DNA from: Escherichia coli
Lineage (GTDB): Bacteria; Pseudomonadota; Gammaproteobacteria; Enterobacterales; Enterobacteriaceae
DNA: 64,000 nucleotides
Reading direction: 5' to 3' (one strand)
NCBI RefSeq assembly: GCF_041248615.1
Contig: NZ_CP158426.1
Positions 26,244 to 37,423 of this stretch are shown here, piece by piece (within the stretch, counting starts at the first letter, position 1; each line of letters starts with the position of its first letter). A model generated the notes under the pieces. That model was not told the origin of the DNA. It made no database searches and worked only from the letters and a program-made list of their open reading frames with translations. Both the position numbers and the translations under genes were made by a program.

Positions 26244-26942
26244 ATGAATAAAATCCTGTTAGTTGATGATGACCGAGAGCTGACTTCCCTATTAAAGGAG
26301 CTGCTCGAGATGGAAGGCTTCAACGTGATTGTTGCCCACGATGGGGAACAGGCGCTTGATCTTCTGGACGACAGCATTGATTTACTTTTGCTTGATGTAA
26401 TGATGCCGAAGAAAAATGGTATCGACACATTAAAAGCACTTCGCCAGACACACCAGACGCCTGTCATTATGTTGACGGCGCGCGGCAGTGAACTTGATCG
26501 CGTTCTCGGCCTTGAGCTGGGCGCAGATGACTATCTCCCGAAACCGTTTAATGATCGTGAGCTGGTGGCACGTATTCGCGCGATCCTGCGCCGTTCGCAC
26601 TGGAGTGAGCAACAGCAAAATAACGACAACGGTTCACCGACACTGGAAGTTGATGCCTTAGTGCTGAATCCAGGCCGTCAGGAAGCCAGCTTCGACGGGC
26701 AAACGCTGGAGTTAACCGGCACTGAGTTTACCCTGCTCTATTTGCTGGCACAGCATCTGGGTCAGGTGGTTTCCCGTGAGCATTTAAGCCAGGAAGTGCT
26801 GGGCAAACGCCTGACGCCTTTCGACCGCGCTATCGATATGCACATTTCCAACCTGCGTCGTAAACTGCCGGATCGTAAAGATGGTCACCCGTGGTTTAAA
26901 ACCTTGCGTGGTCGCGGCTATCTGATGGTTTCTGCTTCATGA
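26244..26942 (+). CDS. cpxR: Two-component response regulator CpxR (OmpR family)
   Basis: 232 aa, MNKILLVDDDRELTSLLKELLEMEGFNVIVAHDGEQALDLL... Confidence 0.96.
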   Translation: MNKILLVDDDRELTSLLKELLEMEGFNVIVAHDGEQALDLLDDSIDLLLLDVMMPKKNGIDTLKALRQTHQTPVIMLTARGSELDRVLGLELGADDYLPKPFNDRELVARIRAILRRSHWSEQQQNNDNGSPTLEVDALVLNPGRQEASFDGQTLELTGTEFTLLYLLAQHLGQVVSREHLSQEVLGKRLTPFDRAIDMHISNLRRKLPDRKDGHPWFKTLRGRGYLMVSAS

Positions 26943-28312
26943 TAGGCAGCTTAACCGCGCGCATCTTCGCCATCTTCTGGCTGACGCTGGCGCTGGTGTT
27001 GATGTTAGTTTTGATGTTACCCAAGCTCGATTCACGCCAGATGACCGAGCTTCTGGATAGCGAACAGCGTCAGGGGCTGATGATTGAGCAGCATGTTGAA
27101 GCGGAGCTGGCGAACGATCCGCCCAACGATTTAATGTGGTGGCGGCGTCTGTTCCGGGCGATTGATAAGTGGGCACCGCCAGGACAGCGTTTGTTATTGG
27201 TGACCACCGAAGGCCGCGTGATCGGCGCTGAACGCAGCGAAATGCAGATCATTCGTAACTTTATTGGTCAGGCCGATAACGCCGATCATCCGCAGAAGAA
27301 AAAGTATGGCCGCGTGGAACTGGTCGGTCCGTTCTCAGTGCGTGATGGCGAAGATAATTACCAACTTTATCTGATTCGTCCGGCCAGCAGTTCTCAATCC
27401 GATTTCATTAACTTACTGTTTGACCGCCCGCTATTACTGCTGATTGTCACCATGCTGGTCAGTACGCCGCTGCTGTTGTGGTTGGCCTGGAGTCTGGCAA
27501 AACCGGCGCGTAAGCTGAAAAACGCGGCCGATGAAGTTGCCCAGGGAAACTTACGCCAGCACCCGGAACTGGAAGCGGGGCCACAGGAATTCCTTGCCGC
27601 AGGTGCCAGTTTTAACCAGATGGTCACCGCGCTGGAGCGTATGATGACCTCTCAGCAGCGTCTGCTTTCTGATATCTCTCACGAGCTGCGCACGCCGCTG
27701 ACGCGTCTGCAACTGGGTACGGCGTTACTGCGCCGTCGTAGCGGTGAAAGCAAGGAACTGGAGCGTATTGAAACCGAAGCGCAACGTCTGGACAGCATGA
27801 TTAACGACCTGTTGGTGATGTCACGTAATCAGCAAAAAAACGCGCTGGTTAGCGAGACCATCAAAGCCAATCAGTTGTGGAGTGAAGTGCTGGATAACGC
27901 GGCGTTCGAAGCCGAGCAAATGGGCAAGTCGTTGACAGTTAACTTCCCGCCTGGGCCGTGGCCGCTGTACGGCAACCCGAACGCCCTGGAGAGTGCGCTG
28001 GAAAACATTGTTCGTAATGCCCTGCGTTATTCCCATACGAAGATTGAAGTGGGCTTTGCGGTAGATAAAGACGGTATCACCATTACGGTGGACGACGATG
28101 GTCCTGGCGTTAGCCCGGAAGATCGCGAACAGATTTTCCGTCCGTTCTATCGTACCGATGAAGCACGCGATCGTGAATCTGGCGGTACAGGTTTGGGGCT
28201 GGCAATTGTTGAAACCGCCATTCAGCAGCATCGTGGCTGGGTTAAAGCGGAAGACAGCCCGCTGGGCGGTTTACGGCTGGTGATTTGGTTGCCGCTGTAT
28301 AAGCGGAGTTAA
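26939..28312 (+). CDS. cpxA: Envelope-stress sensor histidine kinase CpxA
   Basis: 457 aa; H-box LSDISHELRTPLTRL, HAMP and ATPase motifs; ATGA overlap with cpxR. Confidence 0.96.
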   Translation: MIGSLTARIFAIFWLTLALVLMLVLMLPKLDSRQMTELLDSEQRQGLMIEQHVEAELANDPPNDLMWWRRLFRAIDKWAPPGQRLLLVTTEGRVIGAERSEMQIIRNFIGQADNADHPQKKKYGRVELVGPFSVRDGEDNYQLYLIRPASSSQSDFINLLFDRPLLLLIVTMLVSTPLLLWLAWSLAKPARKLKNAADEVAQGNLRQHPELEAGPQEFLAAGASFNQMVTALERMMTSQQRLLSDISHELRTPLTRLQLGTALLRRRSGESKELERIETEAQRLDSMINDLLVMSRNQQKNALVSETIKANQLWSEVLDNAAFEAEQMGKSLTVNFPPGPWPLYGNPNALESALENIVRNALRYSHTKIEVGFAVDKDGITITVDDDGPGVSPEDREQIFRPFYRTDEARDRESGGTGLGLAIVETAIQQHRGWVKAEDSPLGGLRLVIWLPLYKRS

Positions 28313-28319
28313 ACTCGGC

Positions 28320-28520
28320 GCAGTGCCGTCCCCTTCGGGGTGAAGGCAACAGGTCAGCACTGTGCGAACTGATACCCTCACCACGGCCCTCTCCCTGAAA
28401 GGGCGAGGGGAAAAACGTAGCCCTGTTCAGCAACGGAGCTGAGCACCGCTCCGGACAGTCCCCTCGCCCCTCTGGGGAGAGGGTTAGGGTGAGGGGAAAA
28501 ATTCAGCACAATGCAAACGG
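28320..28520. repeat. Structured GC-rich extragenic repeat region (inverted pair of ~36-bp units)
   Basis: CCCTCACCACGGCCCTCTCCCTGAAAGGGCGAGGGG (28375-28410) and its inverted partner CCCCTCGCCCCTCTGGGGAGAGGGTTAGGGTGAGGG (28461-28496), plus a CCCCTTCGGGG hairpin at 28330. Resembles E. coli extragenic repeat families; family not confirmed. Confidence 0.6.
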
Positions 28521-28566
28521 CACTGCTCTCACCGGAAACCATGCCAGATTTCGTATTAAGGCAGAC

Positions 28567-29241
28567 TTATTTTCCCCACAACCGGCGGGAAAAATCTTCG
28601 ATCTTGCCGCTCAGTCGGCGCTTTTGCATCGTCCGCGTCCAGCTTTTCGATAACCCGGCGGCGGAGAGTAAACGGTGATACTGCTCGTCATCAAACGGCA
28701 TATGCCATGCGATGGCGGCAGCCTCCTGCACGGTCACATCGCTGACACGGGAAACCAACTCCAGCGGCGCATCAGCAGATACCAACCCTGGCGCTATCAC
28801 GCTATACAACCACCCCACTTTACCTGTGTTTTGCATCAACTGCGCTATATCGCTGATATCAAAATGGTAATTGAGTTTATAGCAAGGTGAGCGTGGCTGG
28901 CTGACCTGAATTAATGCCTCTCCCCAGCGGAAAATATCGCCAATATAAACATTACTTTCCGTCAGACCGTCGGTTGAGAGATTTTCGCCAAACGCAGGCG
29001 CAACAAACAACTCCGCCTGTTCCGGAAATTCCCGCGCCCAGTAGAGATAGTGCTCACGAGGATAATGACACAGCGCTCTGTCTGGCCCGCCGTGAACCTT
29101 TTTCTCCGCCTGCTCGTCACCTTCCAGCCCCAGCTCCGTCAGCATCAACTCACCATCAACCTGGATTTTGGCAATTGCGCTGGGTTTGCCTTCGGGATAA
29201 GCCTGAATCTTGCCTGTGTATACATCAACCGGATATCGCAT
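28567..29241 (-). CDS. yiiM: MOSC-domain protein YiiM
   Basis: Start at the ATG giving MRYPVDVYTGKIQAYPEGKPSAIAKIQVDGEL... (224 aa). Confidence 0.9.
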   Translation of the reverse strand: MRYPVDVYTGKIQAYPEGKPSAIAKIQVDGELMLTELGLEGDEQAEKKVHGGPDRALCHYPREHYLYWAREFPEQAELFVAPAFGENLSTDGLTESNVYIGDIFRWGEALIQVSQPRSPCYKLNYHFDISDIAQLMQNTGKVGWLYSVIAPGLVSADAPLELVSRVSDVTVQEAAAIAWHMPFDDEQYHRLLSAAGLSKSWTRTMQKRRLSGKIEDFSRRLWGK

Positions 29242-29390
29242 CTGTTCCCTCTCCACGAGAAATTTCCCCATTAGACCATATTTATTTTATGTCAGGCGTG
29301 CTGTTTTCGCGGTATGTATCCAGGCAGTAGCTCAAATAGAAAACCGGACGAACGTTAGTTCATCCGGCTGTGGGGATTAAGGAAGCAGGT

Positions 29391-37341: not shown

Positions 37342-37347
37342 ACACTG

Positions 37348-37380
37348 CCGGATGCGGCGCGAGCGCCTTATTCGGCCTAC
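37348..37380. repeat. REP (palindromic unit) element between rhaA and rhaD
   Basis: GCCGGATGCGGCGCGAGCGCCTTATTCGGCCTAC. Confidence 0.85.
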
Positions 37381-37423
37381 GGGTCGTGCATCCGACAACA
37401 CCGAATTTACAGGAACACAGAAC

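Follow-up and report, generated by a model that had tools for sequence, protein, structure and literature searches.

The closest described counterparts of the structure downstream of cpxA belong to a single repeat family that has been named three times, as BoxC (Bergler 1992), as the PIT elements (Hoyne and Maher 2000) and as the TMECO intrastrand triplex motif (Holder et al. 2015, PMC4666352). According to the latter study the name BoxC was introduced in the paper on envM (fabI), and the core of the motif follows the pattern CCCTCNCCC-N3-6-GGGNGAGGG-N3-GGGNGAGGG. Oligonucleotides with a TMECO sequence were found to form a triplex in vitro, on basis of CD and NMR, and to stop the polymerase in primer extension; DMS footprinting in vivo detected no triplex or protection at TMECO on the chromosome (PMC4666352). 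It was furthermore reported that the five closely spaced inverted pairs of K-12 all consist of one type A and one type B unit, that rearrangement between strains is more common at TMECO loci than at control spacers, and that published work had found no promoter or terminator activity of PIT elements; a link of TMECO to phages or plasmids was not reported (PMC4666352). In the part of the supplement of Holder et al. 2015 (PMC4666352) that was accessible, neither cpxA nor yiiM was found, and a literature search returned no functional literature on TMECO, PIT or the intrastrand triplex later than the 2015 paper.

Other classes of repeats invite comparison as well. Like BoxC, the REP/PU/BIME repeats are short, GC-rich, palindromic and intergenic, they alternate in orientation and they possess family-specific linkers. 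In addition, the two families occupy the same spacers, REP/BIME sequences being the alternative alleles to BoxC at cpxA-yiiM and rhaA-rhaD. However, there is no sequence similarity between them, and BoxC is composed of three 9-nt blocks (the triplex pattern) whereas REPs are single hairpins. REPs have a known Y1 transposase (RAYT). The REPIN, in the sense that Bertels and Rainey reportedly gave to it in 2011, is a doublet that forms a hairpin. The BoxC pairs resemble REPINs in that two inverted units with a short spacer yield one long hairpin and in that the doublet recurs at different loci, but the two units within a BoxC pair are always of different subtypes (A + B). Finally, ERIC/IRU and other enterobacterial MITEs share with the BoxC cluster a length of 100-200 bp, an intergenic position and a predicted single long RNA stem-loop; the cluster differs from these by the lack of a true terminal inverted repeat or target-site duplication, and by its modular units and ragged ends.

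Set beside these systems, the structure after cpxA is very probably a cluster of three BoxC/PIT/TMECO repeats, non-coding and dispersed, without a dedicated role for cpxA or yiiM. The kind of element is already known, as the family, its subtypes, the pairing, the instability and the lack of a known function have all been published. With the known BoxC copies the cluster has in common the core pattern, near-identical K-12 copies, the dispersed intergenic location, the A/B inverted pairing, flanks and linkers, strain polymorphism and the occurrence of decayed copies. It differs from these in three respects: K-12 lacks a copy at cpxA-yiiM, three units are combined here in overlapping tail-to-tail and head-to-head pairs, and the type B unit carries a G-to-T change in the third stem. 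The cluster is a textbook dispersed repeat and carries little weight for the window, i.e. the whole stretch of 64,000 nucleotides of E. coli DNA that was analyzed, and nothing suggests Cpx envelope-stress regulation.

The cluster is located between two convergent genes: cpxA on the plus strand (CDS 26939-28312, with the TAA stop at 28310-28312, as taken from the list of open reading frames and the RefSeq annotation of NZ_OW967178.1) and yiiM, coding for 6-hydroxyaminopurine reductase, on the minus strand (28567-29271 for the open reading frame as listed). The RefSeq annotated CDS of yiiM is shorter than the listed frame and measures 675 nt (225 codons including the stop). The spacer between the stop of cpxA (28312) and the stop of yiiM (28567) covers 254 nt (28313-28566). 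The record NZ_OW967178.1 is 100% identical across this spacer and annotates cpxP, cpxR, cpxA, yiiM, kdgT and sodA around it. Neither in NZ_OW967178.1 nor in the 20 matching records listed does the spacer contain a RefSeq feature. The identification is of value for annotation: RefSeq leaves BoxC repeats unmarked, and mechanically called open reading frames overlap them.

A search with the TMECO pattern yielded one exact match in the 64 kb, at 28461-28495 on the plus strand. When one mismatch was allowed, one further match was obtained at 28375-28409 on the minus strand, with the mismatch located in TGGTGAGGG. There were no other exact or one-mismatch TMECO matches in the window, and 100 shuffles produced 0 matches. 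The initial annotation had described two inverted units of ~36 bp, and these are indeed present, with lengths of 35-36 nt (28375-28409, minus strand, and 28461-28496, plus strand). The plus-strand unit, CCCTCGCCC CTCTG GGGAGAGGG TTA GGGTGAGGG G (28461-28496), contains the exact match and includes GGGAGAGGGTTAGGGTGAGGG at 28475-28495, for which 0 occurrences were expected in shuffles. In the form CCCTCGCCCCTCTGGGGAGAGGGTTAGGGTGAGGGG it shows 0 mismatches to the K-12 TMECO nos. 9, 16, 19 and 22 (Table 1 of PMC4666352), of which no. 9 adjoins fabI (envM). The minus-strand unit, CCCTCGCCC TTTCA GGGAGAGGG CCG TGGTGAGGG (28375-28409), has one mismatch to the pattern and is 1 nt removed from K-12 TMECO no. 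10, the gcvP copy, by a change of G to T in the third block. By its second loop, TTA, the plus-strand unit is a type A unit, and it carries the usual G·A mismatch ('A mm'); the second loop of the minus-strand unit is CCG, as in type B. The cpxA-yiiM pair obeys the rule that an inverted pair combines A with B. Application of the base-triad rules to the sequence indicated that in the type A unit 8 of the 9 Watson-Crick pairs and all 9 purine-motif third-strand pairs are possible, and in the type B unit 8 of 9 for both kinds of pairing, with one mismatch each. The type A unit also fits the G3N3G3N3G3N3G3 quadruplex pattern. As judged from the order of the bases, the pattern would allow an intrastrand triplex of the purine-motif type (class II).

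The anatomy of the cluster was compared with that of the K-12 pairs at lldD-trmL, alx-sstT, fepB-entC, hrpB-mrcB and gcvP-ygfF, with the fabI copy and with copies from other strains. It appeared that the BoxC repeat is larger than the 35-nt core and that types A and B each have their own conserved flanks. Basically two pair arrangements can be discerned, tail-to-tail, with a linker of ~27 nt (AACAGGCCNGCACTGGYGCGAA...) that is common to three K-12 A/B pairs, and head-to-head, with a linker of 40-60 nt. At cpxA-yiiM the order of the units is decayed type A (plus), type B (minus) and intact type A (plus), and the type B unit overlaps both arrangements, being tail-to-tail with the decayed A and head-to-head, via a 51-nt linker, with the intact A. 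More explicitly, the decayed type A unit GTCCCCTTCGGGGTGAAGGC (28328-28347, plus strand) was recognized by alignment with the intact K-12 tail-to-tail pairs (gcvP-ygfF, alx-sstT and fepB-entC) and is joined to the type B unit by the tail-to-tail linker AACAGGTCAGCACTGTGCGAACTGATA (28348-28374). The head-to-head linker (28410-28460) has a hairpin of its own, in which CGGAGC (28434-28439) pairs with GCTCCG (28448-28453); strain GmM066 has the same linker in its rhaA-rhaD pair, and strain EC1515 has a shorter version of it. The intact type A unit is followed by its 3' tail (28497-28533, plus strand), which terminates in GCACTGCTCTCACC (28520-28533). In the decayed unit ~20 nt are missing between the first and second blocks (stem 1 to stem 2), a deletion that leaves a CCCC-TTCG-GGGG mini-hairpin, and the repeat finder paired the unit, as direct repeat D1, with the tail of the intact type A. 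An additional CCCCTTCGGGG hairpin had been proposed before; the sequence is there, but it is not significant by itself (z = -0.44) and represents the remnant of this third BoxC unit.

The spacer was predicted to fold into one long hairpin of ~207 nt, with a free energy of -130.9 kcal/mol (z = -8.35) for RNA of the plus strand, and RNA of the minus strand likewise gave a single long hairpin (-135.9 kcal/mol, z = -7.56). For 28320-28526 as single-stranded DNA -61.4 kcal/mol was obtained (z = -8.42), and for the core of the pair (28372-28498) -86.9 kcal/mol (z = -10.2). A sum of around -53 kcal/mol was obtained for the three local hairpins, and -11.1 kcal/mol (z = -2.2) for the 6-bp hairpin in the head-to-head linker. 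The repeat finder returned inverted arms of 46 nt (28366-28411 versus 28459-28504) and outer inverted arms at 28320-28344 versus 28502-28526. The long stem-loop that the initial annotation envisaged is thus supported, with a stable structure predicted on both strands and fold z-scores of -8 to -10.

The extent that was originally assigned to the element, 28320-28520, is correct in as far as the element is located there, but both limits had to be shifted: the repeat DNA reaches ~28533, and 28320-28329 is ancestral flank. On the left side, the stretch of ~15 nt that adjoins the cpxA stop (ACTCGGCGCAGTGCCG) has its homologue in ACACYGCGCAGGGCAKC, located at the corresponding place in the REP-type alleles of strain RM9872-C1 and 'E. 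coli SCPM-O-B-8794'. The retained ancestral flank ACTCGGCGCAGTGCCGT (28313-28329) includes the left arm, GCAGTGCCGT (28320-28329), of an apparent 10-nt outer inverted repeat, the right arm of which, ACGGCACTGC (28517-28526), lies inside the 3' tail of the type A unit. Given that the left arm is ancestral flank, this apparent terminal inverted repeat is not the element's own. On the right side, the GCACTGCTCTCACC words also close the BoxC block of K-12 lldD-trmL, at the point where the empty-site allele resumes, and GCACTGCTCACC terminates that block exactly at the boundary of the empty-site allele. On this basis the end of the repeat block at cpxA-yiiM was put at ~28533 and the block as a whole was placed at about 28330-28533. 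The block is separated from the yiiM stop by 33 nt of allele-specific DNA, GGAAACCATGCCAGATTTCGTATTAAGGCAGAC (28534-28566), which among 5426 complete E. coli genomes was seen only in the 160 carriers of the BoxC allele, at one place per genome.

A blastn search with 28320-28526 recovered matches in 5407 of the 5426 complete E. coli genomes; the median number of places per genome was 14, and almost all of these places were chromosomal. No place that covered at least 80% of the element was encountered on plasmid or phage records. The initial annotation had suspected a dispersed family that differs from the REP units, to be checked by a genome-wide search for copies and comparison with catalogued families. 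Both parts of this suspicion proved right: the other copies correspond to K-12 BoxC/TMECO, a catalogued family, and alignment revealed no resemblance to the K-12 REP/BIME sequence that fills the same spacer. Membership of the REP/BIME family itself was rejected on account of this lack of similarity to the K-12 spacer with its REP (PU) units, which measure 35-40 nt, and of the outgroup REP alleles, which look entirely different.

The comparison of complete genomes made clear that the cpxA-yiiM spacer is polymorphic. The BoxC allele was present in 160 of the 5426 complete E. coli genomes (about 3%) and the K-12-type REP/BIME allele in about 5107. The K-12 spacer is made up of 105 nt of REP units and is unalignable with the BoxC spacer between the conserved gene ends. 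For the outgroup alleles, species-representative genomes were scanned for the C-terminus of cpxA. The genomes recovered were those of E. albertii, Escherichia sp. MOD1-EC7003, one divergent 'E. coli', two subspecies of Salmonella, Silvania and several Citrobacter. Wherever yiiM follows cpxA in these outgroups the spacer is filled with REPs, and TMECO was absent from the cpxA-yiiM position of the scanned genomes. Considering that E. albertii, Escherichia sp. MOD1-EC7003, Salmonella and Citrobacter carry REPs and no TMECO at this position, REP/BIME is the ancestral state and the BoxC allele arose later, within E. coli. In other words, one repeat family has been exchanged in full for an unrelated one in this spacer, in a minority lineage of E. 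coli, and it is clear that the exchange went from REP/BIME to BoxC. An empty-site allele, having the right flank without repeats, was not found at cpxA-yiiM in the 5426 genomes; the right flank occurred only in the 160 carriers.

A third allele of the spacer was observed in strain FCI29, E. albertii and Escherichia sp. MOD1-EC7003. It contains an extra REP, and the end of cpxA is changed from AGT TAA to TCA TAA, which still reads Ser-stop. Since this allele is common to E. albertii and a cryptic Escherichia lineage, it may represent the oldest form or may have been introgressed.

The head-to-head pair at cpxA-yiiM is 94% identical (118/125 nt) to the rhaA-rhaD pair of strain GmM066, and the allele with a BoxC pair at rhaA-rhaD was found in 788 other E. 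coli genomes. In other strains this spacer holds REP arrays of various lengths: nine REP units in K-12 and, in the window, a single REP at about 37347-37386, which is 9 kb away from the cpxA-yiiM element. At lldD-trmL the allele without BoxC consists of 10 nt of plain DNA and constitutes a clean empty site. Downstream of gcvP, ygfF and BoxC are missing together in some alleles. A general rule by which BoxC would target REP sites, as holds at cpxA-yiiM and rhaA-rhaD, was dropped because it fails at lldD-trmL, with its plain DNA, and at gcvP, where the loss is joint with that of ygfF. The K-12 copies of BoxC are found in co-directional, convergent and divergent spacers, including the divergent promoter region of fepB-entC.

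With respect to function, the BoxC cluster may best be viewed as passive, structure-prone repeat DNA that is carried at a tolerant site and that would not be devoted to the regulation of cpxA or yiiM. When exposed in single-stranded DNA, during replication or transcription, the units could adopt a hairpin, a cruciform or a purine-motif triplex, bearing in mind that DMS in vivo showed no chromosomal triplex, and such structures could give rise to slippage and rearrangement. Traces of structure-driven instability would then be visible in the swap of alleles and in the decay of the third unit. Transcribed at the 3' ends of cpxRA and yiiM, the cluster would amount to no more than an unspecific structural barrier, like the REPs it replaced.

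It has to be considered, though we regard it as unlikely, that the 200-nt hairpin is a selected RNA element, which at the 3' ends of cpxRA and yiiM would block 3' exonucleases or convergent transcription and would have replaced REP/BIME in that capacity. Both strands give a very stable fold, BoxC fills the REP/BIME niche at two loci (cpxA-yiiM and rhaA-rhaD), REPs have been reported as mRNA stabilisers and attenuators, and a position that is normally held by REP is compatible with a selected 3'-end function. The local scan of the spacer returned no plus-strand intrinsic terminator, and this cuts both ways: cpxA has no other terminator in the spacer, but the hairpin itself is not followed by a U-tract on the cpxA strand either. 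The only terminator-like sites were two weak ones on the minus (yiiM) strand, at 28526-28508 and 28534-28518. This reading is weakened by the presence of K-12 copies in every gene arrangement, the divergent fepB-entC promoter region included, and by the copies of the core on viral contigs, where the 146 copies listed showed no strand bias relative to the neighbouring open reading frames (20 same/same versus 18 opposite/opposite, with crude calling of the frames). It is also weakened by the way in which the repeat is conserved (Table 1 of PMC4666352), as the sequence is maintained rather than covarying and most units retain the G·A mismatch. Also the published absence of terminator or promoter activity of PIT elements (PMC4666352) speaks against it. 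A search of Rfam with a permissive E-value gave chance matches only, the best of these being an unrelated eukaryotic frameshift element, with 21 bits versus a gathering score of 40, and the local scan of the spacer found no promoter-like site. The reading as passive repeat DNA is based on the combination of these data, viz. no promoter or plus-strand terminator, no Rfam family, the published null results, the occurrence in all gene arrangements and the lack of strand bias.

Whether the cluster has moved as a unit is a separate matter. The MITE reading was rejected for want of element-owned terminal inverted repeats and of a target-site duplication, the left arm having been traced to the flank by means of the alleles of the outgroups and of divergent E. 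coli. In a broader form, the inverted pair would be a mobile unit, MITE-like or REPIN-like, that is moved in trans by a transposase and was inserted recently at cpxA-yiiM. We hold this to be quite unlikely. A unit of this kind would account for the 94% identity (118/125 nt) that the head-to-head pair and linker share with the pair in the 788 rhaA-rhaD genomes, for the presence/absence polymorphism at several loci and for the clean empty site at lldD-trmL, and a hairpin-forming doublet is the architecture of a REPIN. The junctions point in another direction, as those at cpxA-yiiM, rhaA-rhaD and lldD-trmL all lack a target-site duplication, one arm of what seemed to be a 10-nt terminal inverted repeat belongs to the ancestral flank, and the events resemble segment replacements and not simple insertions. 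Moreover, an insertion at cpxA-yiiM has no counterpart in an empty-site allele among the 5426 genomes, and full-length copies were not found on plasmids or phages. BoxC is not known to have an associated transposase or other enzyme, which we also counted against a mobile unit, and it is not known to be associated with RAYT.

A related thought, which we consider improbable, is that BoxC doublets resemble REPINs in being copied into spacers in the vicinity, where they would oust the resident REP/BIME arrays. It derives from the 94%-identical pair being located at cpxA-yiiM (160 genomes) and at rhaA-rhaD 9 kb away (788 genomes), with REP/BIME as the alternative allele at both. If true, it would imply an unrecognised mechanism of mobilisation or gene conversion for BoxC. 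A gene for a small protein or small RNA in the region can practically be dismissed, as the mechanically called frames at 28242-28433 (minus strand, 63 aa, TTG start) and 28378-28542 (minus strand, 54 aa) cross repeat units whose other copies, at about 14 places per genome, are non-coding, and there is no promoter-like site, no Rfam family and no RefSeq feature under the match in the 20 records listed.

Passive repeat DNA is the reading that we retain for the cluster in E. coli. The distribution of the 35-nt triplex core is far wider than that of the E. coli repeat around it, reaching viral contigs and alphaproteobacterial plasmids, and these viral and plasmid occurrences extend the known distribution of the core. 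Among plasmids 130 records matched, with the core only, and these were mostly from Sinorhizobium (44), Azospirillum (38) and Rhizobium (10); several of the 'E. coli plasmid' matches were megabase-sized records that resemble pieces of chromosome. In IMG/VR the exact TMECO core was present on at least 120 viral contigs, with 146 copies among the matches listed. The G+C content of the contigs among the matches listed ranged from 32% to 74%, the flanks were unrelated to the BoxC flanks of E. coli, and the second loops read TTG, CCG, TCA, TTA, CTG or TCG. The core is conserved at the level of its sequence, the G·A mismatch of the 'A mm' units included (Table 1 of PMC4666352), and its presence in such very diverse contigs with unrelated flanks could reflect recognition by a protein or another function. 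The Campylobacter phages A18a and A11a (MG065686.1 and MG065691.1) each showed two places that match the type A unit, with 94% identity over 54 nt, which is odd for phages that are this AT-rich; both records are unannotated.

Two further observations concern the organization of BoxC units in other strains. Strain EC1515 contains, at 1519-1697 of the retrieved piece, a type B unit together with two tandem type A units that have a period of 73 nt; this array is located between lysine-N-methylase and glycosyltransferase genes in the flagellar region, and indicates that BoxC units can form direct arrays too. In the lldD-trmL spacer of strains D1, GF75 and NCTC9082 a perfect palindrome, GCTGTCTCTTGATCAGATCTCCTGATCAAGAGACAG (at about 218-255 in D1), has taken the place of the central part of the BoxC pair; we take this palindrome to resemble two inverted inside ends of IS50.
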